Shown here piece after piece: positions 4,477 to 57,018 of a stretch of DNA of 64,000 bases (the first letter of the stretch is position 1; each line of letters opens with the position of its first letter). The stretch spans positions 45,538 to 109,537 of the forward strand of contig JAKAHD010000002.1 of the NCBI GenBank assembly GCA_021815205.1, written 5' to 3'. The DNA comes from a bacterium (GTDB lineage Bacteria > Patescibacteriota > Minisyncoccia > UBA6257 > GWB1-50-10). The notes beneath the pieces are model-generated. The model saw only the letters and a list, made by a program, of their open reading frames with translations. It was not told the origin of the DNA and searched no databases. The position numbers were made by a program, and so were the translations under genes.

Positions 4477-5235
4477 ATGAAGTACTTGCATCTTAGTGAG
4501 ACAGTGGTCGTAAAAAAGATTTCCGAGAAGGATAACATCGGAGTATTCCATATTGAAGGATTGTATACGGGATACGGCACGACCCTTGGGAACGCGCTTC
4601 GGAGAGTGCTCCTCTCTTCGCTTCCAGGAGCGGCGATTACCCAAATCAAGATACAAGGAGTGGATCACGAGTTTTCGACGCTTCCCGGCATGATGGAAGA
4701 TGTCGTCGAATATACGCTGAACCTGAAAAAGGTGAGATTTGTGTTTAACGCGGAAGAGCCGCAGACCCTTTCTTTAAAGGTAAAAGGGGAACGCGAAGTA
4801 ACGGCGGCCGATATTGAATCTTCCCCGTTCGTGCAGGTAATCAATAAAGATCTGCATCTTGCAACGCTCACGAAAAAGTCCGCCGAACTCAACATGGAAC
4901 TTACCGTCGAGAAAGGATTGGGGTACGTAGTCTCCGAGATGCATCGCGTGGAGCGTCTCTCTGTAGGAACGGTGGTCTTGGACGCAATCTTCTCTCCCGT
5001 CGTGCGCGTTGCGTTCAAGGTCGAGGACATGCGCGTGGGAGACAGGACCAACTTCAATCGTTTGGAGCTTGAGATAGAAACGGATGGCTCGATCAGCCCC
5101 TCCGAGGCGCTCCATAAAGCGGGGAAGATCATGAAAGATCATTTTGAGAAGATAGCGGAGATAGAAGTGACTCCGGCGGCGCTCGCCGAGGAAGCGGAAG
5201 AAGAGAAAGAAAAGAAAACAAAAAAGAAGAAATAA
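4477..5235 (+). CDS. rpoA: DNA-directed RNA polymerase alpha subunit, N-terminal domain only (no alpha-CTD)
   Basis: alpha-NTD motifs (GYGTTLGNALRRVLLSS.PGAAI); 252 aa ending in an EEAEEEKEKKTKKKK tail; no HhH alpha-CTD. Confidence 0.9.
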   Translation: MKYLHLSETVVVKKISEKDNIGVFHIEGLYTGYGTTLGNALRRVLLSSLPGAAITQIKIQGVDHEFSTLPGMMEDVVEYTLNLKKVRFVFNAEEPQTLSLKVKGEREVTAADIESSPFVQVINKDLHLATLTKKSAELNMELTVEKGLGYVVSEMHRVERLSVGTVVLDAIFSPVVRVAFKVEDMRVGDRTNFNRLELEIETDGSISPSEALHKAGKIMKDHFEKIAEIEVTPAALAEEAEEEKEKKTKKKK

Positions 5236-5240
5236 ATTTT

Positions 5241-5352
5241 GCTACGAAATACGAAGGTAGTACGAATATACGAAATTATAGCTTACGATTTATATCACAT
5301 AACTAACAAGGAACGCGGATTCGTATATTCGTACACAATTCGTAATTCGTAG
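5241..5352. repeat. TACGAA-type intergenic imperfect palindrome (T-element copy 2)
   Basis: gctacgaaatacgaagg..tacgaatatacgaa / attcgtatattcgta..aattcgtaattcgtag between rpoA stop and rplQ start. Confidence 0.8.
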
Positions 5353-5361
5353 AGAAATCCT

Positions 5362-6196: not shown

Positions 6197-6652
6197 ATGA
6201 CAACGACAACTCCAAAAACGAAAAAAACTTCGGCGGGAAATTCCGGAAAAGAGCGGTATCTCGAGGCGGTCGGAAGAAGAAAGACGGCGGTTGCGCGCGT
6301 CCGCCTTTTTACGGGGCGTCCAAAATCAAGCAAGGAACCAGAGATGATGGTGAATGGAAAGGGATTTACCGAATACTTCGGTCTCGTAAAACAGCAGGAG
6401 ATCGTACGCGCTCCGTTTCAGGCGCTCTCGCTTAAAGAGTACAACGCGACCGCGCTCGTGAAGGGCGGGGGCGTGCATGCGCAGGCGGAGGCGATCCGTC
6501 TCGGGCTCTCGAGGACGCTCGTCGCGATGAACCCCATCTGGCGCTCGAAATTGAAATCGCTCGGATTTTTGAAACGCGATCCCCGCAAAGTGGAACGCAA
6601 AAAGTACGGTCTGCGAAAAGCAAGAAGACCTCAGCAATGGCGTAAACGTTAA
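6197..6652 (+). CDS. rpsI: 30S ribosomal protein S9
   Basis: C-terminal GGG..AQA.A.RLG..RAL...KRDPR..ERKKYG..KARR..Q..KR. Confidence 0.95.
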   Translation: MTTTTPKTKKTSAGNSGKERYLEAVGRRKTAVARVRLFTGRPKSSKEPEMMVNGKGFTEYFGLVKQQEIVRAPFQALSLKEYNATALVKGGGVHAQAEAIRLGLSRTLVAMNPIWRSKLKSLGFLKRDPRKVERKKYGLRKARRPQQWRKR

Positions 6653-6716
6653 AAAAATCCCCTATCGGGGGATTTTTCTTTACGCCATTGCTGAGAGGAG
6701 GGGGTGATGGGGGAGG
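6634..6716 (+). repeat. 83-bp direct repeat copy 1 (rpsI 3' end + terminator + G-rich hairpin)
   Basis: caatggcgtaaacgttaaaaaaatcccctatcgggggatttttctttacgccattgctgagaggagggggtgatgggggaggg; identical again at 6795-6877. Confidence 0.85.
6652..6681 (+). terminator. rho-independent terminator of rpsI
   Basis: aaatcccc-tatc-ggggattt stem-loop then T-run; duplicated at ~6813-6842. Confidence 0.75.
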
Positions 6717-6794
6717 GCGGGAAATGAGCCCTCCCCCAAGCCGGAGCTCGCGAACCGAATGGTTCGCGGGAGTCCGCCAAAGGCGGACGACGCA

Positions 6795-6877
6795 ACAATG
6801 GCGTAAACGTTAAAAAAATCCCCTATCGGGGGATTTTTCTTTACGCCATTGCTGAGAGGAGGGGGTGATGGGGGAGG
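6795..6877 (+). repeat. 83-bp direct repeat copy 2 (includes second terminator copy)
   Basis: Perfect repeat of 6634-6716, 161 bp downstream. Confidence 0.85.
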
Positions 6878-6880
6878 GGC

Positions 6881-6972
6881 GGATCGCTGTATTGAAAAAG
6901 TGTGCGCTCCAAGACCGCCTGCCTGCGCAGGCAGGCGAGGCCGGTCTTACCCACTTTTTCAATACAGCGAAT
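6881..6972. repeat. ~90-nt near-perfect hairpin/palindrome at the convergent junction
   Basis: gctgtattgaaaaagtg...cactttttcaatacagc arms (17/17), aagaccg/cggtctt, central perfect palindrome cctgcctgcgcaggcagg. Confidence 0.7.
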
Positions 6973-13873: not shown

Positions 13874-13981
13874 AAGCAGATCACGCAGATAAGACGCGGA
13901 TATACGCAGAAATGTATCCGCGTGTTTCTGCGCCGCTTCAGCGTTATCTGCTTCTACGATTCGTATGTTACAATTACCGAT

Positions 13982-14986
13982 ATGACACCAAAAGGGAAGA
14001 AACAGAAGAATGAAAAAATCAGGGTGGCGGTTCTGATGGGCGGACCTTCGACGGAGCACGAGGTGTCCTTGAAAACCGGCGCGAATATCTTGGAGCACTT
14101 CGACCCCGAACAATTCGAAGCGAAAGGAGTTGTGATCAGTAAGGAGGGGAAGTGGCCCTTTGCGGTCGAGGAGCTTCCGCAGAAATTCGACGTGGCATTT
14201 ATCGCGATGCACGGAACCTACGGTGAGGACGGCACGGTGCAGGGGATTCTGGACGAGGTCTCGATCCCGTATACGGGTTCGGGGAAACTCTCGAGTGCGC
14301 TCGGGATGAATAAGTTTCTCTCACTCCGCCTCTTCAAAGATGCGGGGCTCACGATTCCCCCAACGCTCCACTTTATCCTCCGCGACTTCCCTGAGCGGGA
14401 AGAAGAGGTGATGCAAAACATTCTTTGGTATCTCGAGAAGCCCTGGGTCGTGAAGCCGAACTACGGCGGTTCGAGCGTGGGGACCGTGATCATAAATGAT
14501 AAAGAAGCGCTCCGCGACGTACTTCGCGCCGCGGCGAACGATTATAAAGATGCGCTGGTGCAGACGTGCATTCCCGGAAGGGAAGTCACGTGCGGTGTTG
14601 TGGATTACGGCACGGAGGATTCGGCGTTCGCGCTTCCGCCTACAGAGATCGTGCCGCGGGCGAGCCGCTTTTTTGATTACAAGGCGAAGTACGAGCCCGG
14701 CGGTTCGGATGAGATTACTCCCGCCCGATTTCCCGAGTCGTTCCTTAAGGAGTTCAGGAGGATTGCGCTTCTCACGCACCGGCTTACGGGATGCAGGGGA
14801 TTCTCGCGCACCGATATGATTGTGGGAAAAGATAAGAAGATATACCTCCTCGAGATCAATACGATCCCGGGGCTCACGAAAGAAAGTCTGCTCCCGAAGG
14901 CCGCGCACGTCTACGGCATCCCGTTCCAGAAACTCCTTGAGCTCCTTGTGGAATCGGCGTTCGCTTCGCATAAGAGAAAATCATAG
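13982..14986 (+). CDS. ddl: D-alanine--D-alanine ligase
   Basis: ATP-grasp; RVAVLMGG.S.EHEVSL.T; MHGTYGEDGTVQG.L; start at MTPKGKK. Confidence 0.9.
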   Translation: MTPKGKKQKNEKIRVAVLMGGPSTEHEVSLKTGANILEHFDPEQFEAKGVVISKEGKWPFAVEELPQKFDVAFIAMHGTYGEDGTVQGILDEVSIPYTGSGKLSSALGMNKFLSLRLFKDAGLTIPPTLHFILRDFPEREEEVMQNILWYLEKPWVVKPNYGGSSVGTVIINDKEALRDVLRAAANDYKDALVQTCIPGREVTCGVVDYGTEDSAFALPPTEIVPRASRFFDYKAKYEPGGSDEITPARFPESFLKEFRRIALLTHRLTGCRGFSRTDMIVGKDKKIYLLEINTIPGLTKESLLPKAAHVYGIPFQKLLELLVESAFASHKRKS

Positions 14987-15173
14987 AAAAAAAGATTTTC
15001 ACAGATGGGAGACAGATTTCCACCGAATCACAGATGCGTCGTCACCTATTACCTGTTTTGATTTGTAGTTATCCGTGAGATCTGTTTGAGGCATAATGAA
15101 TACAATACAGAAATACTGAAGCCCCAAAATACCAAAACCGTGAGCAGTATCATCACGCGGAGACCCTATGACA

Positions 15174-15197
15174 GGTGCTATGCTATAGCATAGCACC
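15174..15197. repeat. perfect 24-bp palindrome ggtgctatgctatagcatagcacc (P family)
   Basis: Exact self-complementarity; one of 7 copies in the window. Confidence 0.9.
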
Positions 15198-15213
15198 CTA
15201 GAAAAGCATGTAT

Positions 15214-15310
15214 CCCTCGCATAACGTAAGAGAAAAAAGGAGAATATAATATGATGAAAACTTCGAAAAATGAAAGAGGTCGCTTTTATAGTGAGTTATG
15301 TGAGGGATGA
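15214..15310 (+). promoter_or_regulatory. leader element V: inverted repeat sequestering RBS plus 19-aa uORF (15251..15310) coupled by ATGA to downstream gene
   Basis: ccctcgcataac(15214-25) pairs with gttatgtgaggg(15295-306); uORF MMKTSKNERGRFYSELCEG, stop TGA 15308-10 overlaps ATG 15307-09; paralogous element before mreC. Confidence 0.6.
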
Positions 15311-15948
15311 ATCAAGAACAAAGAACTTGTCAGAATTGTAAACAAAGGTTCATGATTGAACCCGACGATTTTGTGTTCTACGAGAAGATAAAGGTGCCGC
15401 CTCCGACCTTTTGCCCCGAGTGTAGGAATGTGCGGAGGATGACGTGGCGCAATGAGCGGACGCTCTATAAGCGTGCCTGCGAAAAGACGGGAAAACAGAT
15501 CATCTCCTGCTTTGCTCCGGATTCCGGGATCCATGTATACGATCGCGATATATGGTGGTCAGACGAGTGGAATCCGCTCTCATTTGGTCGAGAATACGAT
15601 TTTTTGAGGCCGTTTTTCTCCCAGTTTCGCGAGCTGCTCGGCGCAGTCCCTATGCCGGCGGTATTCAACAGCCGATGTGTGCGGACTGAGTATGCGAATC
15701 ACGGCGGCGAGCTTAAAGATTCATACCTCGTGTTTGCCTCATGGGGAGGGGAGAATCTGCTCTACAGTAGCAAGATACAAAACGGAAAAGATTCACCCGA
15801 TCTCCTTGTTGTAAGTAATTCCGAACTCTGCTACGAGGTAATGAATTCTTCAAAACACTTCCACGGCGACACGCCCTGTCCGAACGAATTTGAGACAAGC
15901 TATGCCCCCAACCGCCCTGAGATCATCTATTGTGAAAGCTGCTACTAG
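15307..15948 (+). CDS. hypothetical Cys-rich protein with N-terminal zinc-ribbon (CxxC...CxxC)
   Basis: CQNCKQRF...CPECRNV and C-terminal CPNEF...CESCY; flanked by P palindromes. Confidence 0.5.
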   Translation: MNQEQRTCQNCKQRFMIEPDDFVFYEKIKVPPPTFCPECRNVRRMTWRNERTLYKRACEKTGKQIISCFAPDSGIHVYDRDIWWSDEWNPLSFGREYDFLRPFFSQFRELLGAVPMPAVFNSRCVRTEYANHGGELKDSYLVFASWGGENLLYSSKIQNGKDSPDLLVVSNSELCYEVMNSSKHFHGDTPCPNEFETSYAPNRPEIIYCESCY

Positions 15949-15962
15949 GCGGAGGTAGTGTG

Positions 15963-15996
15963 CCATAGGTGCTATGACATGTCATAGCACCTATGG
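15963..15996. repeat. perfect 34-bp palindrome ccataggtgctatgacatgtcatagcacctatgg (P family)
   Basis: Exact self-complementarity, 15 nt after stop of 15307..15948. Confidence 0.9.
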
Positions 15997-16032
15997 TGCG
16001 TGCCATATGCGATATTGATCGGTGGAGCCCCA

Positions 16033-16262
16033 CGGCTTTACCCCCACACCATGGGCGTAAGCTCATGGTGTGAGGGTTTACAGCCGTGGCACCGCTCCAC
16101 ACGCTTCGTCGGGCGGAACCCTCCGAAGCGTATCCTCCTTCGCTCAAGCTACGGAGGATGCCCTCGTGCACCCCCGCATCTATGTATAGGTGTGGGGGTG
16201 CATCCCTGCATTTACGGGTGGGGCTTTCTCCGCTTCGCGGAGGAGGGTAGATTCAAGTATGA
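16033..16262. repeat. composite repeat C1 (contains Y-type cccccacac...gtgtggggg palindromes plus ~150-bp conserved core shared with 57375-57560)
   Basis: acggctttacccccacaccatggg...tttacagccgtggcaccgctccacacgcttcgtcgggcggaaccctccgaagcg shared with C2; second Y-like palindrome at ~16168-16203. Confidence 0.7.
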
Positions 16263-16297
16263 TAAGGGGAGGAGTATAATAAACAAAACATGAGAAT

Positions 16298-16720
16298 ATG
16301 AAAAAGAAGAAAATGCATATCTCGCTCATTTCGCATTACCCATCGCGTAAAGAATGGGAGAGCGCTTCGTGGGAGATAATTGTGCGATCTCCAGACATCC
16401 TTAACGCGCTGACTACTCCTCGCGAACGCCACGATTTAGTGATGCGCACCGCGGTAATAGAAAGAATTCATTCCGGGAAAAGCTATCGCGAGATTGGAAA
16501 AGAATTGTGGTGTTCTCCGCAGACCATAAGCAGCATCAAAAAGGCGCTTTATGAGAAAAAGTATCGAAGTTACCGAGAGCGGGGCAAAACAGAGCGGAAG
16601 AAAAGAGTGTATTCCTCGTTCTCCCGCAGAGCCGAACGAGAACCTAAGAAAAGAAAAGCGTACCGCGATTACGGTATGCCTCAATTATCGGGTATTTCAA
16701 GAAGACACCCGCTTAATTAA
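16298..16720 (+). CDS. TrpR-like (YerC/YecD family) HTH protein
   Basis: R..V...I..G.SYREIG......S..TISSIKKAL matches the YerC/YecD TrpR-like HTH pattern. Confidence 0.55.
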   Translation: MKKKKMHISLISHYPSRKEWESASWEIIVRSPDILNALTTPRERHDLVMRTAVIERIHSGKSYREIGKELWCSPQTISSIKKALYEKKYRSYRERGKTERKKRVYSSFSRRAEREPKKRKAYRDYGMPQLSGISRRHPLN

Positions 16721-16739
16721 GTACAGAAGGAAGAACAGG

Positions 16740-16767
16740 AGGGTGCTATGACATGTCATAGCACCCT
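16740..16767. repeat. perfect 28-bp palindrome agggtgctatgacatgtcatagcaccct (P family)
   Basis: Exact self-complementarity 20 nt after the stop of the TrpR-like gene. Confidence 0.9.
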
Positions 16768-16883
16768 CTATGCGTCAGAGGATGTATTTCGTTAGATTTT
16801 ACTGAGTCTCTTTCTGCTCCGAGTGCCGTATCGCTGTTTTTCGTTTTATTACCTTCTTCTCCGGGTTGTGGTATGGTTACCTT

Positions 16884-18050
16884 ATGAAGAAAATTGCGGT
16901 TATGTATTTTCTTGCCGCGCTTATCATTGAATTTGCTGCGGTTTCATACTTTGGGGGAAGCATGGCGTTCTTTCATGTTCCGCAATCGAGTGTGAGGATG
17001 GGGGAGACCTTATCGTCCTCGAGAAACCAACCGGCGATCTCCATTGCGTCAGGAACGGATCCCGCATCGGCGGCGCCGATAAGTACTTCTCCTCAAAAAC
17101 AGAGCACCGCTTCGTCCTCGGGGAAGAAAAAGACGAACCCGACGGTACGAGAGGCGCCGCCGCCCCAGTCCGCATCTTCAGTACCGCAAGTTGATTTACA
17201 AGGAAAAAGTTTTGTGGGACTCTTGTGCCACTTTGGTGCAAACACCGCCGCGATTGCGAACGCGTACGGCAACAGTTCCGGAGAGATCCTCATGAAAGGA
17301 AGCGGGGTCATCGTAAATTCCGAAGGGTATATCTTGACCGTGCGGCATCTTGTCGATCCAAAATGGACGAACTGGGCATATGCCTCTTCAACCTCGGACA
17401 GTATGAAGATCTTAAACAACAATATCACGTTCAAGTACTGCGAGGTTGCGATGCCGACCTCGGATGCGCTGCCCGATATCGCGGTGATTCAGCGCATCAA
17501 TCCGAATATCACCGTGAACCACCCGTTCTTGTATCTTGCGACGCTTGCGTTTGTGCCGCCGCAGGGGAGTTTGAGCGATTATGAGTACGGATATCTTGAT
17601 TTTGCGGTGTTGAAAGTTACGGAGCCGATGCATAATTGCGCGCAGTTCAACGCGTGCACCCTGCCGCGTTCCTATCCCTACAGCCCGTCGCTCTCCGCGG
17701 AGGTGCCGGAAAAGGGGACGAATATCCTGAATTTCGGATATCCCGCGGAGCTCATTAATTCAAGAGCAAGCACCTTCAATGATTTTTATTTGAAGGGTAC
17801 GCTCGGGTACTTGAAGGATTATTTCGGAGGCGATGCGTACTTCAAAAACAAACCCTTCACGTTCGAGTGGACGGCGAACGATGTCCTCGAGGGACGATCG
17901 GGGTCGCCCCTCATGTGGAAGGGGTACATTGTGGGAATTCAGACCTCGACGAACATTGAGAACTCCGCGGAGGACTTTGCGCTCGGCATCCCCGCGATCC
18001 AGCGGATCCTCAAGGAGAATAATTTAGGGGACATCCTTATAACGAATTAA
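16884..18050 (+). CDS. secreted trypsin-like serine protease (S1 family)
   Basis: Signal anchor MKKIAVMYFLAALII; GSGVIVNSEGYILTVRHLV (His) and GRSGSPL (Ser) motifs. Confidence 0.7.
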   Translation: MKKIAVMYFLAALIIEFAAVSYFGGSMAFFHVPQSSVRMGETLSSSRNQPAISIASGTDPASAAPISTSPQKQSTASSSGKKKTNPTVREAPPPQSASSVPQVDLQGKSFVGLLCHFGANTAAIANAYGNSSGEILMKGSGVIVNSEGYILTVRHLVDPKWTNWAYASSTSDSMKILNNNITFKYCEVAMPTSDALPDIAVIQRINPNITVNHPFLYLATLAFVPPQGSLSDYEYGYLDFAVLKVTEPMHNCAQFNACTLPRSYPYSPSLSAEVPEKGTNILNFGYPAELINSRASTFNDFYLKGTLGYLKDYFGGDAYFKNKPFTFEWTANDVLEGRSGSPLMWKGYIVGIQTSTNIENSAEDFALGIPAIQRILKENNLGDILITN

Positions 18051-18053
18051 TGA

Positions 18054-18147
18054 CCGCTGATTCACCCCCCACACCCATGCATGGGTGTGGGGGTGAAGCT
18101 GATTTTCGCCGATACATTATCCGCGGTCATCAGATCACAATCAGCGG
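18054..18147. repeat. MITE-like element Z with nested Y palindrome (18063-18095)
   Basis: ccgctgatt...[caccccccacacccatgcatgggtgtgggggtg]gaagctgattttcgccgata...aatcagcgg; Z copy without insert at 46987-47036. Confidence 0.65.
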
Positions 18148-18203
18148 AGATCAGTTATGAAGAGCGTTGAAAGGCGGCAAAACCTCTGCTACAATTCCTC
18201 CGT

Positions 18204-19457
18204 ATGCGCGAGTCACAGTTATTCTTCAAGACCCAAAAGGACTTCCCCAAGGACGAGGTCGCGATAAACGCCCAGCTTCTCTTGCGGGCTAATTTTATCG
18301 AAAAACTCATGGCGGGCGTGTATTCGTACCTGCCACTGGGGTATCGCGTGCGCGAGAAGATTATTCGCATCATCGAGGAAGAAATGAACGCGTTGGGCGC
18401 GGCGGAGATCCTCATGCCCGCGCTCCATCCCCGCTCGGTGTGGGATGCGACGAAGCGGTGGGAGACGATGGGAAAGATCATGTACCAATTTAAAGATCAC
18501 TCGGGGCGCGAGGTGGGCTTGGGACCCACACATGAAGAAGTGATGGCAGTGATCGGAAAAACCGTGATTGATTCGTACGCCGATCTGCCGCGCGCCGTCT
18601 ACCAGATCCAGACGAAGTATCGTGACGAACCGCGCGCGAAGTCCGGCGTTTTGCGGGGAAGGGAGTTCACCATGAAAGATCTTTACAGTTTTCATACGGA
18701 CGAAGCGTCGCTCGCGGAGTTCTATGAAGAAGCGAAGAAAGCGTACACGAAAGTGTTTACCCGCGCGGGACTCAAGGCGTATGCGACGGAAGCTTCAGGG
18801 GGGGACTTTACGAAAGAGTATTCTCACGAGTTCATGGTGGAAACGAATGCGGGGGAAGACGAGATGATGCTCTGCCGGCTCTGCGGGTTCGCGCAGAATA
18901 CGGAGATCTCAAAGCTGAAGTCGGGGACACAATGCCCGAAATGCCAGAGCGGCGTCTTGGACAAGGTAACGAGCGTCGAAGTCGGAAATATCTTCAAACT
19001 CGGGACGAAGTTTTCGGAGCCCGTCGGATTCACCTACAAGAATCAGGAGGGGAGATCGATGCCCGTCGTGATGGGTTCGTACGGAATCGGTATCGAGCGG
19101 CTCTTGGGCACGATCGTCGAGGTGCATCATGACGACAAAGGGATTGTATGGCCAGAGGCCGTCGCCCCCTTTAAGGCGCATCTCCTCCGCATCGGGGAGG
19201 CGACCCCGGAGCTTCAACGACTCTCGGAAGAAACGTATCACGCGCTCCAAAAAAGCGGTGTCGAGGTGCTCTTTGACGATAGGGAGAGAGCGAGTTCCGG
19301 AGAGAAATTTTTCGACGCCGATCTCATAGGAATTCCGTGGCGCATCGTGGTGAGCGAGAAGACGCTCGTCCGGGAGAAGGTCGAACTCAAGCGCCGGAAT
19401 GAGCAAGAGGTAAAAGTAATTACACTGAACGCATGCATAAAATCACTTACTCTATAG
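18204..19457 (+). CDS. proS: prolyl-tRNA synthetase (class II, no INS editing domain; Zn-ribbon insertion)
   Basis: Class II motifs; 417 aa; CRLCGF...CPKCQSG. Confidence 0.9.
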   Translation: MRESQLFFKTQKDFPKDEVAINAQLLLRANFIEKLMAGVYSYLPLGYRVREKIIRIIEEEMNALGAAEILMPALHPRSVWDATKRWETMGKIMYQFKDHSGREVGLGPTHEEVMAVIGKTVIDSYADLPRAVYQIQTKYRDEPRAKSGVLRGREFTMKDLYSFHTDEASLAEFYEEAKKAYTKVFTRAGLKAYATEASGGDFTKEYSHEFMVETNAGEDEMMLCRLCGFAQNTEISKLKSGTQCPKCQSGVLDKVTSVEVGNIFKLGTKFSEPVGFTYKNQEGRSMPVVMGSYGIGIERLLGTIVEVHHDDKGIVWPEAVAPFKAHLLRIGEATPELQRLSEETYHALQKSGVEVLFDDRERASSGEKFFDADLIGIPWRIVVSEKTLVREKVELKRRNEQEVKVITLNACIKSLTL

Positions 19458-21800: not shown

Positions 21801-23628
21801 AGACATACTGACCGACCGCGCCGTCGAAGAAGACCTCCTCGAAGTGCCGCTCACCGACAAGGTATTTAGGCGCTTTTCCTGGATCTCGGGGATCGTGATA
21901 TTTCTTGTGCTCGCACAGATCGTGAACGTGGGAGTATTCCAGCACGGGTTCTATGTGAAGCGCGCGATCGCGAATATGAGCGATATAAAAACGGAGGTTG
22001 CGCCGCGCGGAATTATCTATGATCGTTTCGGAAATCCGCTTATCAAAAACGATCCCGCATTCGATGCGTTTCTTGTTCCGAGCGAACTGCCGAAAGACGC
22101 CGATTCGAGGAGCGCCATTATTGCGAGAGTAAGTAAGCTGCTCGGCCTACAGGAGGCGGAGGTGCGGATGAAGATCGAGAAACGGGACTGGAGTTTGCGC
22201 TCGGACCTGCTCTTGAAACACGCCATTTCGCACGATGAGATCGTTGCGCTTTCTTCCGCAGCGCTCCAGGGGATTCAGATCACCCCCTCGTTTGAGCGAG
22301 TGCCCATTATACCCTTTACGTTCGCGCATCTTTTGGGATATACAGGACTCGTGAACGAGAGCGACCTAAGGGGAAATCAGAATCTCGCCATTGACGATCA
22401 AGTAGGAAGAGCCGGACTTGAGCGCGTGTACGACACCTACCTCCGCGGAGCGGATGGGAAAACCATGATCGTAACAAATGCGCGGGGCGAGCGGCAGAAC
22501 GAACGGGTGATTGCGCAGCCGACGATAGGCGATTCCCTCGCCACCTATATTGATAAGGATATGCAGCGTTATTTTTACGACGAGCTGCAGACTAAGATTC
22601 GCGCGCTCGGAAGAAACGTTGGGGTGGGAATCGCAATGAATCCCCAGAACGGAGAAGTGCTCGCACTCTTCAGCATTCCTTCATACGATTCAAATCACGT
22701 CGCGGCGTCCCTGAACGCGCCCTTTAATCCGATGTTTAACCGCGCGGTGAGCGGGCTCTACAGCCCGGGTTCGACCGTAAAGCCGCTTGTCGCGACTGGA
22801 GCTCTGGCGGAGGGGATACTGGACCCGAACCATGAGATCTACTCCCCGGGGTATCTCGATATCCCAAATCCGTACGACCCCTCGCATCCATCCCGATTTC
22901 TGGATTGGCAGCCTCAGGGATGGGTGAATCTCTTCTCCGCACTTGCGCGTTCGAGCGATGTCTACTTCTACGAAGTGGGCGGGGGATTTGGCGATCAGCG
23001 GGGCTTGGGCATTACGCGCCTTAGAAGCTGGTGGGAGAAGTTTGGATTGAACGTAACAACAGGGATTGATCTGCCGAACGAGAATGCGGGCTTTCTCCCC
23101 GACCCGCAATGGAAAGAGCGGGTGAAGGGTGAACCGTGGCGCCTCGGCGATACCTTCAATGTTTCGATCGGGCAGGGCGATCTCGTGATTACGCCGATCG
23201 AGCTTCTTAATTATGTGAACGCGATTGCGAATGGAGGGAAATTCGTTACGCCTCGTGTTATGAAAGATATAAAAGACGCGCAAGGGAACATCGTTCTTAA
23301 GAGCGCCCCCTCGGTGCGTGCTGACATAAGTTCCGAGATAGGAAAAGTTCTTCCTCTTGTGCGGCAAGGTATGCGCGACACGGTAATGAAACCCTACGGC
23401 ACCGCGTATCTTCTGCATGATCTTCCCATCGAGGTTGCGGCGAAGACCGGTTCCGCGCAAGTCGAAAATAACGCGAAGACGAACGCATTTTTCGTTGGGT
23501 ACGCGCCGTACCAAGATCCGCAGATTGCGATCGTGATCCTTGTCGAGAATGCGAGAGAAGGGAGCTTGAACGTAGTGCCGGTAGCGCGGGATTTCTTTCT
23601 GTGGTACTATAAGAACAGAATGAAATAG
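21739..23628 (+). CDS. mrdA: penicillin-binding protein 2 (class B PBP)
   Basis: SxxK (STVKP), SxN, KTG(S) motifs; N-terminal TM; start may be 21769 (MECMHG). Confidence 0.85.
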   Translation: MESYPGLWYGMECMHGDLNLEDILTDRAVEEDLLEVPLTDKVFRRFSWISGIVIFLVLAQIVNVGVFQHGFYVKRAIANMSDIKTEVAPRGIIYDRFGNPLIKNDPAFDAFLVPSELPKDADSRSAIIARVSKLLGLQEAEVRMKIEKRDWSLRSDLLLKHAISHDEIVALSSAALQGIQITPSFERVPIIPFTFAHLLGYTGLVNESDLRGNQNLAIDDQVGRAGLERVYDTYLRGADGKTMIVTNARGERQNERVIAQPTIGDSLATYIDKDMQRYFYDELQTKIRALGRNVGVGIAMNPQNGEVLALFSIPSYDSNHVAASLNAPFNPMFNRAVSGLYSPGSTVKPLVATGALAEGILDPNHEIYSPGYLDIPNPYDPSHPSRFLDWQPQGWVNLFSALARSSDVYFYEVGGGFGDQRGLGITRLRSWWEKFGLNVTTGIDLPNENAGFLPDPQWKERVKGEPWRLGDTFNVSIGQGDLVITPIELLNYVNAIANGGKFVTPRVMKDIKDAQGNIVLKSAPSVRADISSEIGKVLPLVRQGMRDTVMKPYGTAYLLHDLPIEVAAKTGSAQVENNAKTNAFFVGYAPYQDPQIAIVILVENAREGSLNVVPVARDFFLWYYKNRMK

Positions 23629-23632
23629 CGTA

Positions 23633-23745
23633 GCTACGAAATACGAATTTTCTACGAATATACGAATCTCCACGTCGTTCTGATTTACCTCCGGCGGAGA
23701 AGACCCTTCGTGTTCGTATATTCATAATCAATTCGTAATTCGTAG
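23633..23745. repeat. TACGAA-type intergenic imperfect palindrome (T-element copy 3)
   Basis: gctacgaaatacgaattttctacgaatatacgaa / ttcgtatattcataatcaattcgtaattcgtag between PBP2 and greA. Confidence 0.8.
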
Positions 23746-23753
23746 AGAATCAC

Positions 23754-24212
23754 ATGCAAAATTATTTAACAAAGGAACGACATGAGGAGCTTGTCGCGGA
23801 GTTAGATGATTTAAAGACGAAAGGGCGGCAGTCGGTTTCTGAGCGGCTGCGGCACGCGAAGGATCTGGGTGATCTCTCGGAGAACGCGGAGTATCAGGCG
23901 GCGCGCGAAGAGCAGTCGCTTTTGGAGCAGAAGATAGTCCAGCTCGAGTCGCTTTTGAAGTACTCGTCGATTATCGAGCACCAGCCGAAGGGAGGTACGG
24001 CGGTGCGGCTCGGATCGAAAGTGAAAGTGAAGAAGAATGGGTCGTCCGTCGAGTACACGCTCGTGGGCTCGAACGAGGCGGACCCCTTTCAGAATCTTAT
24101 CTCGAACGAGTCGCCCTTGGGGCGCGAGCTCCTTGGAAAGAATGTGGGGGATACGATACAGGTGCAGACGCCGAAAGGAACGGCAGAATATATAATCGAA
24201 GAAATTCACTGA
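23754..24212 (+). CDS. greA: transcription elongation factor GreA
   Basis: LT..G...L..EL..L....R..V...I..A...GDLSENAEY..A...Q. Confidence 0.9.
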   Translation: MQNYLTKERHEELVAELDDLKTKGRQSVSERLRHAKDLGDLSENAEYQAAREEQSLLEQKIVQLESLLKYSSIIEHQPKGGTAVRLGSKVKVKKNGSSVEYTLVGSNEADPFQNLISNESPLGRELLGKNVGDTIQVQTPKGTAEYIIEEIH

Positions 24213-24214
24213 GG

Positions 24215-24320
24215 GCTACGAAATACGAATTTTGTATGAATATACGAAAATACGAGATCCTTCACTTCGTTCAGGATGACGGCTGTATTCGTATATTCGT
24301 AAGTGATTCGTATTTCGTAG
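24215..24320. repeat. TACGAA-type intergenic imperfect palindrome (T-element copy 4; W-element fragment in centre)
   Basis: gctacgaaatacgaattttgtatgaatatacgaaaatacga...attcgtatattcgtaagtgattcgtatttcgtag; centre gatccttcacttcgttcaggatgac. Confidence 0.8.
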
Positions 24321-24340
24321 CATAATCTTAATAGAGTTCA

Positions 24341-25783
24341 ATGTTAGAGGACATCATGCAAGAACGGCGGGAAAAACTTTCCCGCTATACAAAAGAAGCG
24401 GATCCGTATCCGGCCCGCGTGAAGAGAACCGTAACGGCGCATGAGGCGCTTCTTCGGTTCGGCGCATTCCTAAAGGCAAACAAAACGATATGGCTTACGG
24501 GGAGAGTGATGAGTATGCGCGACCAGGGAGGGATCGTGTTTTTGCATATTGAGGATAAAAGCGGAACGATTCAAATCATCTTGAGAAAAGAAGAAACGAA
24601 AGGGTTCCGGGTGCTTCAGAAGACGCTCGACAAGGGCGACTTCCTTGAGGTTGCGGGGAAGGCGATGAAGACGAAGCGAGGGGAGAAGAGCGTGCTCGCA
24701 TCGCGGGCGCGGATTATCGCGAAGAGTCTCCGGCCCATTCCCGATTCGTGGTTCGGGCTCGAGGATGCGGAGACGCGCCTTCGGAAACGTTACCTCGATG
24801 CGATCGTGCACCCCGAAACCAGAGAACTCATGGAAAAGAAAGCGGTGTTTTGGGAGACCGTTCGGGAATTTCTGAAGCACGCATCGTTTCTGGAGGTCGA
24901 GACGCCCGTCCTGGAGCCGATTCCGGGAGGCGCCGAGGCGGAACCCTTCATCACGCACCATAACGCTTTGGACAGGAACTTCTATCTCCGCATCTCGCTT
25001 GAACTCTCATTGAAAAAGATGCTTGTCGCCGGACTTGAGCGGGTATTTGAGATTGGAAGGATTTTTAGGAACGAGGGGATCGATCGCGAGCATCTACAGG
25101 ACTACACGCAGATGGAGTGCTACATGGCGTATGCGGACTATCACGACATGATGCGGCTTACCGAAAAAATGTTCAAAGCAATCGTGAAACGAACCTGCGG
25201 GACATTCACCACCTCTCAAGGAGGAAAGAAGGTAAACTGGGGAACAAAATGGAAGAGCGTTGACTATTATGCGGCGTTCAAAAGATATAACGGCATCGAT
25301 TTGAAATCCGCGCCGGTCGAATCTCTGCGCGCTCGCGCGCGCGAGCTCGGCATCCCGCTCGATGCGTCCGTCGGGAAGGGAAAACTTATCGATCTTATAT
25401 ACAAAAAAACGGTGCGCCCGAAACTCGTGAATCCTTGTTTTCTCGTGAATCCTCCGGTTGCGATCGAGCCGCTCGCAAAACGCGTGCCGGAAGACCGGGA
25501 TCGCGTGGAGCGATTCCAGATTGTCGCCCTCGGTACGGAGCTCGGAAAAGGATTCTCGGAGTTGAACGATCCGATCGATCAGCGGGCGCGATTCGAGGAG
25601 CAAATGGCGCTTCGAGACGCGGGCGACAAGGAAGCGCAGATGCTCGACGAAGATTTTATAGAAGCATTGGAATACGGCATGCCTCCCGCCGCCGGGTTTG
25701 GCATGTCGGAGCGCTTTTTTGCGGTTTTGATGGACAAGCCCGTACGGGAGACGGTATTTTTTCCTTTGATGAGAGAACGGTGA
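24341..25783 (+). CDS. lysS: lysyl-tRNA synthetase (class II)
   Basis: OB anticodon-binding domain then class II core (FLEVETP, RISLEL..K, FEIGRIFRNEG, ELG.GFSE). Confidence 0.9.
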   Translation: MLEDIMQERREKLSRYTKEADPYPARVKRTVTAHEALLRFGAFLKANKTIWLTGRVMSMRDQGGIVFLHIEDKSGTIQIILRKEETKGFRVLQKTLDKGDFLEVAGKAMKTKRGEKSVLASRARIIAKSLRPIPDSWFGLEDAETRLRKRYLDAIVHPETRELMEKKAVFWETVREFLKHASFLEVETPVLEPIPGGAEAEPFITHHNALDRNFYLRISLELSLKKMLVAGLERVFEIGRIFRNEGIDREHLQDYTQMECYMAYADYHDMMRLTEKMFKAIVKRTCGTFTTSQGGKKVNWGTKWKSVDYYAAFKRYNGIDLKSAPVESLRARARELGIPLDASVGKGKLIDLIYKKTVRPKLVNPCFLVNPPVAIEPLAKRVPEDRDRVERFQIVALGTELGKGFSELNDPIDQRARFEEQMALRDAGDKEAQMLDEDFIEALEYGMPPAAGFGMSERFFAVLMDKPVRETVFFPLMRER

Positions 25784-25786
25784 TAT

Positions 25787-25901
25787 GCTACGCAATACGA
25801 ATTTTGTAGGAATATACGAAAACGAAGAATATGCAAGCAGCGTGTTACTGAGCGGTATGTGTTGTACATTCGTATATTCGTAATTAATTCGTATTTCGTA
25901 G
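25787..25901. repeat. TACGAA-type intergenic imperfect palindrome (T-element copy 5)
   Basis: gctacgcaatacgaattttgtaggaatatacgaaaacgaa ... attcgtatattcgtaattaattcgtatttcgtag between lysS and serS. Confidence 0.8.
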
Positions 25902-25920
25902 CGAATTTTTATAGAAAATT

Positions 25921-27244: not shown

Positions 27245-27278
27245 ACCAAGTTATTTCGCCATGGCGAAATAACTTGGT
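27245..27278. promoter_or_regulatory. perfect 34-bp palindrome accaagttatttcgccatggcgaaataacttggt (operator-like) at start of PaaX-like gene
   Basis: Exact self-complementarity; 42-bp version at 28042-28083. Confidence 0.7.
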
Positions 27279-27900
27279 AGAAAATGGAACGCGCGCCAAA
27301 ATAAGGCACATGACTCAAGGACAGAAAAGAAAAATGCAATTACGGCGCGGATCCCGTGCGCATCATATTATGAAATGTGTTGCATTGGGAGGCGGTGTGC
27401 TGGTTCTATCGCTTGTTGCTCCTATGGGCGGCGCACTCCTTGTGCGAAATTTGATCCGCGTGTATTTCAGGAGGAGATCTTTTGAGAAAAAACGGTTCCT
27501 GAACGACCTCAAGAGTCTTCGGGAACGCAGTTTGGTGGAGTATCATGAGTCACGGGACGGAACGGTGAGGATTACGTTCACAAAAGCGGGAAAAGAAAAG
27601 ATGCTTGAATATCGGGTGGACGAGATGAAGCTTAAAAGGCCAGAAAAGTGGGATAAAAAATGGCGTCTCGTAATGTTTGATATTCCAAGCGATCACAAAG
27701 AAGCGAGAGATGCATTAAGAAGAAAGTTGAAGAGATTGGAATTTTATCCTATGCAGAAAAGCGTGTATCTTACCCCGTATCCATGCGAAGATGAAATAGA
27801 ATTTTTAGCCGCGCTCTTTGATGTGAGGCGATATATACTCGTGCTTTACGCAAGCGGTTTTGAGAGCGAGGAGAAATTAAAACGGCATTTTGATTTGTGA
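27274..27900 (+). CDS. PaaX-like regulator: N-terminal hydrophobic segment, wHTH, Cas2/VapD-like domain (start uncertain, possibly 27310 or 27370)
   Basis: SLVEYHESRDGTVRITFTKAGKEKM (winged helix) then WRLVMFDIPSDHKEARDALRRKLKRLEFYPMQKSVYL (Cas2-like strand-helix-strand as in PaaX central domain). Confidence 0.5.
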   Translation: MVENGTRAKIRHMTQGQKRKMQLRRGSRAHHIMKCVALGGGVLVLSLVAPMGGALLVRNLIRVYFRRRSFEKKRFLNDLKSLRERSLVEYHESRDGTVRITFTKAGKEKMLEYRVDEMKLKRPEKWDKKWRLVMFDIPSDHKEARDALRRKLKRLEFYPMQKSVYLTPYPCEDEIEFLAALFDVRRYILVLYASGFESEEKLKRHFDL

Positions 27901-32546: not shown

Positions 32547-32581
32547 TTAGCGCTTGACAATATCGAGTGCTAATTTATACT
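32547..32581 (+). promoter_or_regulatory. CIRCE operator (TTAGCGCTT-N9-GAGTGCTAA) overlapping sigma70 promoter (TTGACA 32554-59, TATACT 32576-81) of the hrcA-grpE-dnaK-dnaJ operon
   Basis: CIRCE consensus TTAGCACTC-N9-GAGTGCTAA: right arm perfect, left arm 2 mismatches; -35 lies in the spacer. Confidence 0.8.
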
Positions 32582-44899: not shown

Positions 44900-44983
44900 G
44901 CTCAGGTGTCGGAACTGGTAGACGATCACGACTCAAAATCGTGTGGCCGTAAGGCCGTGAGGGTTCAAGTCCCTCCCTGAGCA
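44900..44983 (+). tRNA. tRNA-Leu (anticodon CAA)
   Basis: Acceptor gctcagg/cctgagc, anticodon stem cacga/tcgtg with loop cuCAAaa, long variable arm ggccgtaaggcc, T-arm gaggg-ttcaagt-ccctc, discriminator A. Confidence 0.85.
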
Positions 44984-44985
44984 CA

Positions 44986-45555
44986 ATGGGAGTACGAACA
45001 TCATTTCATCGAGCGTCTAGTGCGGATACTTTAGAAAATAAAGAAAATCTTTCTTATGTCATTGGTGTAGCCATTGGTGATGGTAATCTCTCAAATCCAA
45101 ACGGAAGGACAGTGCGCTTAAGGGTAACTTGCGCCACTCAATACCCGAATCTTATCAGGCAAATAAAGAAATCTATAGAGAAAGTATTCCCGCATAATAA
45201 AGTATCCCTCGTGAAAAGAAAGGAGACATATTTGGATGTCAGCTGTTATTCCAATAAATGGGAGAGTATTCTTGGATGGAGAGCGTCTGGCGGTTCGAAA
45301 TACAAACAAAGCGTTTCTGTTCCCCAATGGATAAAAGAAAATAAAAGATATTCCATGAAATGCCTGCAAGGACTGTTAGTGACCGATGGCTCCTTATATC
45401 TTGATAGAGGGTATAGAATGATTAATTTTACGACTGTGATTCCACGGCTTGCGCAAGACGTGAGAGAAATGATTGTTAATTTATGGTTCAGCTCAAGAAT
45501 CTACAGATTAAAAACAAAAGGAAAAGATAAGTATGTTATTAAGAATAGCAACTAA
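44986..45555 (+). CDS. LAGLIDADG homing endonuclease (two-motif, free-standing)
   Basis: LSYVIGVAIGDGNL and LQGLLVTDGSLY motifs; AT-rich ORF starting 3 nt after tRNA-Leu. Confidence 0.8.
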   Translation: MGVRTSFHRASSADTLENKENLSYVIGVAIGDGNLSNPNGRTVRLRVTCATQYPNLIRQIKKSIEKVFPHNKVSLVKRKETYLDVSCYSNKWESILGWRASGGSKYKQSVSVPQWIKENKRYSMKCLQGLLVTDGSLYLDRGYRMINFTTVIPRLAQDVREMIVNLWFSSRIYRLKTKGKDKYVIKNSN

Positions 45556-55765: not shown

Positions 55766-55881
55766 TTCATCAGGATCCATCTCAAAAGTACTCAGAATTA
55801 TGCTCTGGGACTCCTCGAATGCGCCAAGGAAGTTCAACTTCTTTAGAGAGTCGAACTTCGAAGACACTCCGCGTTGAAACA

Positions 55882-55915
55882 CCGAGGGTGCTATGACATG
55901 TCATAGCACCCTCGG
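55882..55915. repeat. perfect 34-bp palindrome ccgagggtgctatgacatgtcatagcaccctcgg (P family)
   Basis: Exact self-complementarity. Confidence 0.9.
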
Positions 55916-55955
55916 TGCGGTGGAAAAAAGGGGATGATTGTGTAATAATAAAGGC

Positions 55956-56927
55956 ATGAAGAAGAATGATGGTTTTATACCGCTGTGGGCGCTCCTCGTC
56001 GCGCTCGGCGTGATCGTAGTCGCGGGAGGAGTGTGGTATCTCAACTCATCGTCGGGGACAAAAGTATTTGACCCGAGTCCCAATGATCCGATTTGGCGGG
56101 TGTACACCGACACCGCGAACGGATTTGAAGTAAAGTATCCAACGGGAGTTACGCTCCAAGAGCAGAACGGCGACGTCTCCCTCTCTTTTCCGGGAGATAA
56201 GGCGCGCATTTATCTTAAGGTAACCAACACACTCTCCGCACCGCTTTTCGGGACGTTCGGCGGCTGGTATCAATATAACAAAGCCGCGGGGTCACCAAAT
56301 CTCGTGTCCACCGGCACAATCGGTAACTTCGCAGTAGATTATTTTATGCAAGATGCCGGCATGGGGTCGTGGGACAGAGCGATAAATGCGTATCAGACGA
56401 AGAACGGCACCTATTATGAATTATCCTTGTATTATCCGCGGGAATTCAGCGTGCCGGCCGGCGCTGATCACCAAGCCGCTATTGCGGAGGCAAGCGCTGA
56501 TTTGCACGATCTGAACAACGCATATGTGAAGACATTTACGAAAATTCTTAATACATTCCGGTTTACCCTGCCGCAGGGAGTGGAGAAGAAAACATGGAAC
56601 GGAATGACTTTCGACTATCCGGCCGGGTGGACGGTGAGGGAAGATACGTACGCGACACCCGCGCAGACAGCGGAAGGCACCCCACCTTCAGTGGTTGGTC
56701 TCAGTATCGAAAAAGTAACGGGAGCAGAACAATATTTTATTGAGATCGGCGGGCGTCAAGCCGACTGCCGCGGAAACAGCGGTTATGCGAAGTGCGTGAC
56801 TATTCAAACGCCGGATAAACAGCTTTGGCCCGTGCACACAATAAACAGAGACTCCGACACTTTGAGCGTTTTCGATTCAATCGTTCAGAGCATCGTGCAG
56901 CACGGCGGCGCGATCTACCGCTACTAA
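55956..56927 (+). CDS. hypothetical membrane-anchored/secreted protein
   Basis: Start at MKKNDGFIPLWALLVALGVIVVAGG (signal anchor); no motif recognised. Confidence 0.5.
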   Translation: MKKNDGFIPLWALLVALGVIVVAGGVWYLNSSSGTKVFDPSPNDPIWRVYTDTANGFEVKYPTGVTLQEQNGDVSLSFPGDKARIYLKVTNTLSAPLFGTFGGWYQYNKAAGSPNLVSTGTIGNFAVDYFMQDAGMGSWDRAINAYQTKNGTYYELSLYYPREFSVPAGADHQAAIAEASADLHDLNNAYVKTFTKILNTFRFTLPQGVEKKTWNGMTFDYPAGWTVREDTYATPAQTAEGTPPSVVGLSIEKVTGAEQYFIEIGGRQADCRGNSGYAKCVTIQTPDKQLWPVHTINRDSDTLSVFDSIVQSIVQHGGAIYRY

Positions 56928-56970
56928 AGTAGGAAAGTAGGAATCGAAAATCTGTTTTGGGGATAATATA

Positions 56971-56997
56971 AAAACCTCGCATAAGACGAGGTTTTTC
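56971..56997. terminator. bidirectional rho-independent terminator
   Basis: aaaacctcg-cataaga-cgaggtttttc; A-run upstream, T-run downstream; convergent genes on both sides. Confidence 0.8.
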
Positions 56998-57018
56998 TGT
57001 GATTAATGTTCAGATTTT

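Follow-up and report, generated by a model that had tools for sequence, protein, structure and literature searches.

Operators of the TrpR/HisR family are palindromes of ~20 bp built around a 6-nt centre, and autoregulation through them is common (PMC9413887). Two further described systems are close to the locus reported here, namely genomic-islet hot spots, at which core genes are fixed on both sides of a variable cargo, and REP/BIME elements with RAYT, in which short extragenic palindromes are dispersed, combined into composites and found on both sides of a small gene. Our locus is the interval between ddl and proS in a stretch of 64,000 nucleotides (the window; all coordinates count from its first base) taken from contig JAKAHD010000002.1, positions 45,538 to 109,537, of a bacterium of the Patescibacteriota (assembly GCA_021815205.1); sequence comparison also traced it to contig DAIBZI010000002.1 of the metagenome-assembled genome GCA_027423515.1, with its first base at contig position 45327. 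Three open reading frames (ORFs), all on the + strand, lie in the interval and encode a Cys-rich protein, a TrpR-like helix-turn-helix (HTH) regulator and a protease with a Trypsin_2 domain. A preliminary description of the sequence had placed these three genes between ddl and proS with repeats separating them, and the ORF coordinates, shuffle counts and folding z-scores bear this out. The most conspicuous repeat is a perfect palindrome, GGTGCTATG-N6-CATAGCACC, which we call P. We consider it probable that the interval is a variable, lineage-specific islet at an inter-operon hot spot, assembled piecemeal and partly decaying, in which P most likely represents operators of the TrpR-like protein.

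The islet shares with REP/BIME and RAYT systems the dispersed palindromes, their combination into composites and the flanking of a small gene on both sides. It differs in that the flanked gene encodes an HTH protein and not an HUH/Y1 transposase, in that the palindromes are perfect including their centre, and in that no GTAG-type head was recognised. Membership in the REP/RAYT group was rejected: the palindromes are present, but the flanked gene is an HTH gene without a Y1_Tnp/HUH match, and the window ORFs that were scanned include no transposase. With the TrpR/HisR/YerC family (PF01371), the regulator shares an above-threshold Pfam match, a conserved HTH recognition helix and, as in the autoregulation of hisR (PMC9413887), a candidate palindrome ahead of each paralog whose two half-sites enclose a 6-nt centre. 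Here, too, there are differences. The window protein is 140 aa long with a conserved basic YRSYRERGKTERKKK tail, whereas the known family is <100 aa; it is multi-copy in its genome and has no trp or his genes nearby; and the sequence of P is unlike the TrpR/HisR consensus, extends into long perfect stems and also occurs 3′ of the gene.

Gene order at the ddl-proS junction

The junction between ddl and proS is a gene-turnover hot spot between two conserved cell-wall/cell-shape operons. Its left anchor, ddl (D-Ala-D-Ala ligase; 13922..14986, + strand; Pfam Dala_Dala_lig_N/C), is the last gene of the block mreB-holB-frr-rseP-ddl. Its right anchor, proS (18204..19457, + strand; assigned from Pfam tRNA-synt_2b and HGTP_anticodon and from synteny), is the first gene of the block proS-mreB-mreC-mreD-pbp2. 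The proteins of the window were mapped on ProS-centred loci drawn from species-representative genomes, giving a synteny set of 14 relatives labelled Patescibacteria, Paceibacterota or Minisyncoccia, all of them contigs of metagenome-assembled genomes (MAGs). Gene order around the gap was kept in L002-L010 and L040, and the content of the gap was found to vary. In L003 (ProS identity 70%) and L005 (69%) the gap is empty, proS following ddl directly after 48 and 115 bp, respectively, and in L004 and L010 (71% and 69%) it measures ~450 bp without an ORF. Gaps of 730-1184 bp in L006, L007 and L040 (69-75%) carry unrelated, Pfam-less ORFs of 149-214 aa. In L002 and L009 (83% and 87%) the sole content of the gap is one Cys-rich gene of full length (573 and 586 aa), and in L001 (83%) 4.4 kb are taken up by a diversity-generating retroelement (DGR) and a HigB-like toxin. 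L011 and L012 (65-66%) are without ddl and have 64 bp between rseP and proS. Because the gap is empty or differently filled in relatives, the segment is accessory, as had been proposed; the same trio conserved across the lineage without repeats was not seen, so that status stands.

The right edge of the hot spot is marked by a promoter-like site of proS, TTGAAA-17-TACAAT (18167..18195, + strand), 8 nt before the ATG. The motif AAAACCTCTGGTACAAT lies at the same distance from the ATG (8 nt) in L002, L009 and L084, and the cargo of all close relatives stops just short of it. L084 is the closest relative, with 89% identity in ProS and 93% in MreB. The junction thus resembles genomic-islet hot spots in its fixed core genes on both sides, its variable cargo and its right boundary at a conserved promoter. 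It differs from them in having no tRNA, integrase or phage genes at the site, and in a cargo that is small (0-4.4 kb) and consists partly of same-genome-family paralogs, not foreign DNA.

A foreign composition of the islet was rejected, since its GC and GC3 values depart by no more than about 2 sd from the mean of the window (GC z-scores of the three genes, -0.9, -1.8 and -0.2). An assembly artefact was rejected as well, because the stretch from the TrpR-like gene to the protease is 100% identical in an independent assembly (Logan contig L083) and so is not an artefact of the MAG. Judging from promoter motifs, each islet gene appears to be a separate transcription unit with its own -10-type promoter. 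Boxes resembling a -10 element were noticed 6-8 nt before the ATG of proS and the protease gene (window 18190-18206 and 16872-16886) and of the Cys-rich genes of L081 (2350-2385), and this short distance suggests that leaderless mRNAs are common in the host lineage.

The DGR at the junction in L001 (1495-5942; JAJYXD010000073.1) was also inspected. Its target protein, of 495 aa, combines a pilin N-methylation (N_methyl) motif with an FGE-sulfatase/CLec domain, and it is accompanied by bAvd, an AAC-codon-rich template-like repeat, a frameshifted reverse transcriptase and a HigB-like toxin pair.

The TrpR-like regulator and its flanking palindromes

The TrpR/YerC-like HTH protein (P0131, 140 aa, with a basic C-terminal tail; 16298..16720, + strand; alignment A6) matches Pfam PF01371 (Trp_repressor) over residues 33-86 with 28.6 bits against a cutoff of 27, and it falls below the cutoffs of the NCBIfam YerC/YecD and TrpR models. 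Its homologs form at least 155 clusters, for which the source names given are nearly all CPR (candidate phyla radiation) lineages, and no TrpR-like relatives were found in viral contigs. A paralog in the window's own genome, P0137, is 61% identical to the islet protein and belongs to the cluster adk-TrpR-glycerate kinase (MOFRL)-PPDK-CysRich, which is also kept in the genome of L009 (L095/L096). Since P0137 sits in this conserved cluster, the islet gene is, on the evidence of the alignments, the extra paralog. Its best non-self matches (62-67% identity) again occur in other contexts, namely PPDK-TrpR (L097), TIM-TrpR-CysRich (L093) and thioredoxin-like-TrpR-CysRich (L098).

Six copies of P are present in the window, against 0 in 100 shuffles, and three of them (15174, 15968 and 16742) belong to the islet. 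The first, at 15174..15197, is a perfect 24-nt palindrome of variant A (centre CTATAG) 110 nt upstream of the Cys-rich ORF, with a hairpin of -17.4 kcal/mol (z = -3.9). The second, at 15963..15996, is a perfect long-stem palindrome of variant B (centre ACATGT; 34 nt, -32.4 kcal/mol, z = -5.8) that starts 2 nt past the former stop codon of the Cys-rich gene; we read it as the upstream flank of a TrpR cassette. The third, at 16739..16768, is a perfect 30-nt copy of variant B (-24.9 kcal/mol) that starts 19 nt past the TrpR stop codon as the downstream flank of the cassette, and with z = -6.4 it closes the range of the individual P hairpins (-3.9 to -6.4).

This arrangement is not peculiar to the islet. 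Palindromes of the P type (GTGYTATG-N6-CATARCAC) flank all seven TrpR-like loci for which flanking sequence was available, and in six of the seven the variant is the same on both sides. The islet gene lies between two B copies (centre ACATGT), and L097 (P0133) between two B′ copies, GCTGTGACATGTCACAGC, that share a symmetric change (T>G / A>C). L120 has a B-like copy upstream and B downstream; L098 (P0132) has A′ and A; L093 (P0135) has C (centre ACGCGT) on both sides; L095/96 (P0136) has C′ on both sides; and L091 (P0137) has A (centre CTATAG) upstream and C then A downstream. The upstream copy is always of the long-stem kind, with arms of 17-21 nt whose outer sequence is locus-specific yet perfectly complementary. 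It stands 80-112 nt ahead of the TrpR start codon at every other TrpR-like locus examined, with an A-rich tract and a TATAAT box ~40 nt beyond it. In the window the TATAAT box lies at 16275-16280, and the distance from P to the start codon is 307 nt because a composite repeat, C1, has been inserted between P and the promoter. The downstream copy lies 5-45 nt past the stop codon. Across the seven loci, then, the candidate operator sits either ~40 nt upstream of a -10 box or past a stop codon.

Copies of P also stand ahead of Cys-rich genes (window 15174, L091 9977, L098 946 and L114 6320), ahead of the MOFRL-PPDK operon (L091 5572 and L095 5450) and ahead of the window genes at 55938 and 57709. 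No copy was found in 49 ProS-centred loci (837 kb), which include L001, L002, L009 and L084, and viral contigs gave single chance-level sites only and no multi-copy P loci. Our literature search found no description of P-type palindromes.

The core of P is kept across cassettes although the TrpR-like proteins are only 61-67% identical, and the palindrome is perfect through its centre in all three variants (CTATAG, ACATGT and ACGCGT). The recognition helix also follows the centre: TISSIKK goes with ACATGT (B) in 3/3 loci, TISGIKK with CTATAG (A) in 2/2, and TIGSIKR and TISAIKK with ACGCGT (C). The conserved core, the perfect centre, the tracking of helix and centre and the resemblance to TrpR/HisR operators argue for sequence-specific recognition at the DNA level. 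We infer that P is the regulator's candidate operator or a cassette boundary. That it may be the cognate site of the TrpR-like protein itself we rate, from these comparisons, somewhat below an even chance. The CIRCE/HrcA operator (TTAGCACTC-N9-GAGTGCTAA) was considered as an identity for P and rejected, since the half-sites of P are everted and its centre is 6 nt; the only CIRCE-like site of the window, with 2 mismatches, is at the hrcA start (32547-32573).

The three copies of P outside the islet (55880-55917, 57636-57661 and 58246-58271) flank two genes, an ORF of 329 aa that has no Pfam match and a hydrophobic N-terminus (55938-56927), and a 2′-5′ RNA ligase-like gene (57709-58224). The region 55880-58271 may be a second small variable region.

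The Cys-rich gene

The Cys-rich ORF (213 aa; 15307..15948, + strand) was aligned with the full-length proteins of L002, L009 and L081. It matches their residues 1-185 and then their last ~28-35 residues, and since the match is limited to these two parts, we take it, from the alignments, to be a truncated deletion remnant of a ~590-aa family member. The N-terminal ~185 aa, with both CxxC pairs intact, are joined in frame to a C-terminal tail of ~28 aa, and the internal deletion amounts to ~1.1 kb or about 370 residues. With a slash for the joint, the sequence reads ...ELCYEVMNSSK/HFHGDTPCPNEFETSYAPNRPEIIYCESCY, the residues after the joint starting with HFHGDTPCPNEF.... A second lesion lies near the end of the gene, where relatives read CESCYQAEVV* and the window reads CESCY-TAG-AEVV, a TAG having taken the place of the Gln codon 4 codons short of the family end. 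The vestigial codons AEVV follow at 15949-15960, the former stop TGA is now TGC, and a P palindrome comes directly after. All invariant columns of the family's N-terminal region are present (CxxC...CPxC, FYxK..VP.PT.CP.CR..RR...RNER and WWSD.W), while the central Cys-rich repeat region, the second Zn-ribbon module and the ending ...CExCYQxEVV of the full family architecture are not found in the window ORF. The structure predicted by AlphaFold2 is confident in the N-terminal domain only, and its confidence score (pLDDT) is <50 for residues 115-213. Identity is about 80-81% to the L081 homolog and 41-52% to other copies.

Upstream of the ORF, within the spacer that separates it from ddl (IG1, 14987-15306), a 95-nt stretch at 14993..15087 (+ strand) is 74% identical over 99 nt to L081 2265-2363 and resembles a vestigial promoter/leader of the Cys-rich-gene type. 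The L081 segment terminates in GCTATAAT, 7 nt ahead of the Cys-rich ATG. The window stretch now lies ~210 nt from the ORF, and the segment that displaces it includes a P palindrome. In the same spacer, a 19-codon upstream ORF (MMKTSKNERGRFYSELCEG; 15251-15310) was noticed whose end overlaps the Cys-rich start codon as ATGA. It begins right at a TATAAT box and may not be transcribed from that promoter.

The protein had been described as belonging to no recognisable family. That is correct for Pfam and NCBIfam, in which the ORF has no above-threshold match; the ORF is nevertheless a truncated member of a very large, uncharacterised CPR family. At least 310 homologs were found, and wherever a source is named for them it is a lineage of the CPR (Patescibacteria). 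A profile search placed the family in 4,727 clusters at 50% identity, with a typical length of 540-600 aa. Checks of remote homology and structure had been proposed for the protein. Searches against Pfam, NCBIfam, PADLOC, PHROG and the PDB left the family without a match, and fold comparison gave nothing significant. No description of the family was found in the literature.

Copies of the gene tend to be clustered. Two to seven were present in 47/80 metagenome loci, and 67 of 90 successive same-strand pairs were ≤150 nt apart, the median gap being 7 nt. In L099-L178 (e.g. L126, L159, L106 and L142) the same-strand arrays reach 7 copies, and some of the copies in several arrays are split or fragmentary. 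The architecture of the family protein is internally duplicated. The Cys-rich copies at the ddl-proS junction of three genomes are only 41-46% identical to one another, and their closer relatives sit in other contexts (81% to L081 and 66% to L098). This low positional identity, with closer relatives elsewhere, points to rapid birth-and-death turnover of the family rather than simple vertical descent. The same-strand arrays of 2-7 copies, the low positional identity and the frequent disrupted copies are all shared with known birth-and-death families, from which this one differs in being cytoplasmic-looking (no signal peptide was seen), CxxC-rich, CPR-restricted and without a database or fold match.

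In the closest homolog, that of L081, an in-frame TAG (930-932) stands at codon 167, where the window has Leu, and the gene is called as two, which may reflect another decaying copy or a sequencing error. Recoding of TAG as an explanation for the in-frame codons in the window tail and in L081 was rejected, because ddl stops at a TAG in the window and, at the corresponding position, in relatives.

The trypsin-like protease

The third gene (16884..18050, + strand) encodes a trypsin-like (S1, Trypsin_2) serine protease, P0121, of 388 aa from its ATG, which matches PF13365 with 29.5 bits against a cutoff of 27.6. An N-terminal hydrophobic segment is followed by a Ser/Pro/Ala-rich linker. The triad motifs are conserved (His, TVRHLVDP; Asp, LDFAVLK; Ser, GRSGSP), and D239, G340, S341 and P342 are invariant in alignment A7. 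The protein is thus predicted to be membrane-anchored or secreted, with an intact catalytic triad. It shares with HtrA/DegP-like secreted proteases the Trypsin_2 domain, the His/Asp/Ser motifs and the N-terminal anchor or signal, and it differs from them in lacking a PDZ match and in its few homologs. Membership in HtrA/DegP/DegS was rejected, the NCBIfam HtrA and DegS models giving only weak, partial matches of about 13-23 bits against cutoffs of 350-800. No PDB sequence relative was found at E≤0.01. A weak, partial match to Lamassu LmuA (E=3.4e-9) was dismissed because it runs through the generic trypsin domain; Lamassu was further ruled out by the export anchor of the protease and by the absence of an SMC-like (LmuB) neighbour.

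Only 10 homologs were found in 5.8 billion sequences, and the exact protein P0121 occurs on 7 contigs. The protease adjoins proS only in the window and in L084, where only 44 bp separate a homolog with 66% identity (P0122) from proS downstream of it. For three further homologs whose contexts were examined (P0123, P0126 and P0127), the neighbourhoods are unrelated and include no TrpR-like gene.

Composite hairpin repeats

Two composite elements accompany the P palindromes. C1 (16022..16260, ~240 nt) is a multi-hairpin repeat between P and the TrpR promoter, contains a Z-type hairpin at 16171-16198 and accounts for much of the 348-nt spacer between the Cys-rich and TrpR-like genes, for which the folding z-score is -10.4. 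The second element, Z+Y (18045..18156; -52.5 kcal/mol), contains the perfect palindrome CCCCCACACCCATGCATGGGTGTGGGGG at 18066-18093 and is a larger inverted repeat within which the hairpin CCCCCACACC...GGTGTGGGGG lies; the arms of this hairpin have 14 matches against 1.9 expected. Folding of the element (18040-18165) gave z = -5.7, and the protease-proS spacer of L084 is without it. No Rfam family matched the islet repeats at threshold, and the exact window repeats were not found in the equivalent intergenic regions of relatives.

A second copy of C1 is present at 57367-57560 (88% identity over 123 nt). It overlaps the 5′ end of a 128-aa PNP_UDP_1 phosphorylase fragment on the - strand (57019-57560) that covers profile positions 137-206 of 233, so that C1 marks another truncated gene.

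Origin of the islet

The order of events that we infer, and the binding or termination by P that goes with it, can be set out as follows. A ~1.1-kb in-frame deletion and a late nonsense codon would have reduced the Cys-rich gene to its N-terminal Zn-ribbon domain and C-terminal tail. The TrpR-like gene would represent one more copy of a cassette that is complete in itself (long-stem P, ~40 nt, TATAAT, HTH gene, P), a unit that recurs at other loci and in other genomes. This cassette would have come to abut the former Cys-rich stop, and the composite hairpin repeat would later have been inserted into its leader. The protease would have been inherited at its proS-adjacent position together with the closest relative, L084. 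The P palindromes would be dimer-binding operators through which the TrpR-like regulator controls its own gene and neighbours such as Cys-rich members, and they may additionally act as hairpin insulators.

Acquisition of the islet through its repeats, as the preliminary description had it, is plausible but unproven. The positions of the elements are suggestive: the TrpR cassette abuts the exact Cys-rich end, C1 interrupts the TrpR leader, the stretch at 14993-15087 is displaced by a P-bearing segment, and Z+Y is inserted relative to L084. However, the relatives' junctions yielded no empty/filled site pair at nucleotide resolution and no target-site duplications, and the window ORFs that were scanned revealed no domain of an integrase, recombinase or transposase, so that causation by the repeats stays conjectural. 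An origin from a phage or plasmid was rejected, as the TrpR-like gene has no relatives on viral contigs and PHROGs and PADLOC gave nothing meaningful.

Several observations weigh against the piecemeal, operator-based reading. The intergenic regions are too diverged to be aligned, and insertion boundaries come from gene content only; the L084 contig begins 94 nt upstream of the protease, short of where TrpR-like and Cys-rich genes would lie. Between the Cys-rich N-domain and its ~80% homolog there are 71 synonymous and 37 non-synonymous codon differences, from which it follows that the truncation is recent or that the N-domain still functions; the remnant may therefore be functional rather than a pseudogene. 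Of 80 Cys-centred metagenome loci, only one has a TrpR-like gene nearby, and on this count a general linkage of the two was rejected, the linkage being confined to the closest TrpR subfamily. The match between helix and centre may simply reflect co-descent of whole cassettes. Finally, P copies lie 5-45 nt past stop codons and their outer arms vary yet stay perfectly paired (24-42 nt), and a structural hairpin accounts for this position and pairing at least as well as a plain operator does.

The last points lead to another reading, in which P, C1 and Z/Y are hairpins of the REP/BIME kind, selfish or structural, that terminate transcription, stabilise mRNA or insulate genes. They would build up in intergenic DNA that is dispensable and favour deletions and rearrangements there, and they would accompany TrpR-like genes through co-inheritance and not through binding. 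We think this rather unlikely. It would account for the strength of the hairpins (z = -3.9 to -10.4), for the many P copies just past stop codons, for outer stems that vary between copies while complementarity stays perfect, for the truncated PNP_UDP_1 fragment that the second C1 copy abuts, for the breaking of independent assemblies at Z hairpins (L083 ends there) and for the P copies beside unrelated genes (55887, 57637 and 58247). Yet the hairpins are not followed by a U-tract, the window yielded no transposase, whether RAYT/HUH or other, and each of the three centres is self-complementary at its 4-nt loop positions, for which the chance is about 1/4096 if selection acted on the hairpin only. 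Ordinary terminators conserve structure and not sequence, whereas the core sequence of P is conserved across proteins as different as those of the cassettes. The flanking of all TrpR-like loci examined (7/7), set against 0 P in the 49 ProS-centred loci, also speaks against it. The cognate-site and hairpin readings of P are not mutually exclusive. A bolder version of the former, which we put forward tentatively as possible, is that P marks the cognate sites of an expanded, CPR-specific TrpR/YerC-like branch whose paralogs travel as helix-matched P-promoter-gene-P cassettes and control, by way of dispersed P sites, members of the Cys-rich family and the glycerate kinase-PPDK operon, or else that the cassette is a new type of palindrome-bounded mobile unit, with an HTH protein in place of a RAYT transposase.

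Two explanations treat the islet as cargo of a single kind. The original proposal of one acquired regulatory/protease module can be stated as a single repeat-mediated acquisition of a functional regulator and protease, with the Cys-rich protein as a novel third part. The genes are indeed adjacent on one strand with repeats between them, and the TrpR-like gene lies directly 5′ of the protease gene with P between. We nevertheless find the proposal very unlikely and largely refuted: the Cys-rich gene stands alone at the junction in L002 and L009 and the protease beside proS in L084; none of five other TrpR-like contexts (P0132, P0133, P0135, P0136 and P0137) has the protease, and none of three other protease contexts (P0123, P0126 and P0127) has a TrpR-like gene; the Cys-rich ORF is a deletion remnant and the composition is native. 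Three different gene distributions thus give no support for a co-acquired module. The gene-palindrome-gene-palindrome layout, and the occurrence of the P-TrpR-P unit in at least five genomic contexts, might instead suggest an integron-like or site-specific array in which P is an attC-like recombination site and each gene a mobile cassette. An integron array comprises attI, the tyrosine recombinase IntI and cassettes that lack promoters and have an imperfect attC at their end. We judge this origin highly improbable and reject membership in that class, since the scan of window ORFs brought up no domain of an integrase, recombinase or transposase, a promoter-like site precedes each gene, P is short and perfect (24-42 nt) where attC sites are imperfect and 60-140 nt long, and viral contigs gave neither relatives nor multi-copy P loci.

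We therefore return to the reading of a piecemeal, partly decaying islet with P as operators. The ddl-proS islet is an ordinary accessory islet, and its palindrome-flanked regulator is the most interesting part; most of the interest comes from the P-TrpR-P cassette, together with a Cys-rich family that is large and unannotated. The islet shows small CPR genomes gaining and losing genes at a fixed inter-operon junction beside essential cell-wall genes. The TrpR-like proteins are one of few multi-copy transcription-factor families in regulator-poor CPR genomes, with a testable candidate operator, and the pairing of P and TrpR could give the first regulon for uncultured Patescibacteria. The Cys-rich family, with its about 4,700 clusters, arrays of up to 7 copies and birth-and-death turnover, bears the signature of a conflict or surface-interaction system.

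Other features of the window

Further repeats were noticed elsewhere in the window. Downstream of rpsI, a 91-nt segment that includes a terminator-like hairpin (AAAAATCCCCTATCGGGGGATTTTT) occurs twice, the copies being 161 nt apart and 97% identical (6632-6883). Paired intergenic ~50-nt TTCGTA/TACGAA repeats occur in five copies (163-301, 5222-5356, 23614-23749, 24196-24324 and 25768-25905) just 5′ of the ORFs at 306, 5362 (L17), 23754 (GreA), 24341 (Asp/Asn-tRNA synthetase) and 25921 (serS), and they may be a shared regulatory or promoter element. At 58491-58802, a 61-nt exact direct repeat (58561-58621 and 58742-58802) starts inside the 3′ end of tRNA-Ser(gga) (58491-58580); it is att-like in appearance, and its copies are only 181 nt apart.

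Two genes of low GC content were also observed. A LAGLIDADG-type ORF (44986-45555, in the region 44900-45555) begins one base past tRNA-Leu(caa), has a GC content of 0.377 (z = -4.2 against window genes) and may be a homing endonuclease gene or a foreign insert. A lone gene at 27274-27900 (GC 0.445) encodes a PaaX_M/Cas2-like domain, with no CRISPR array noticed.

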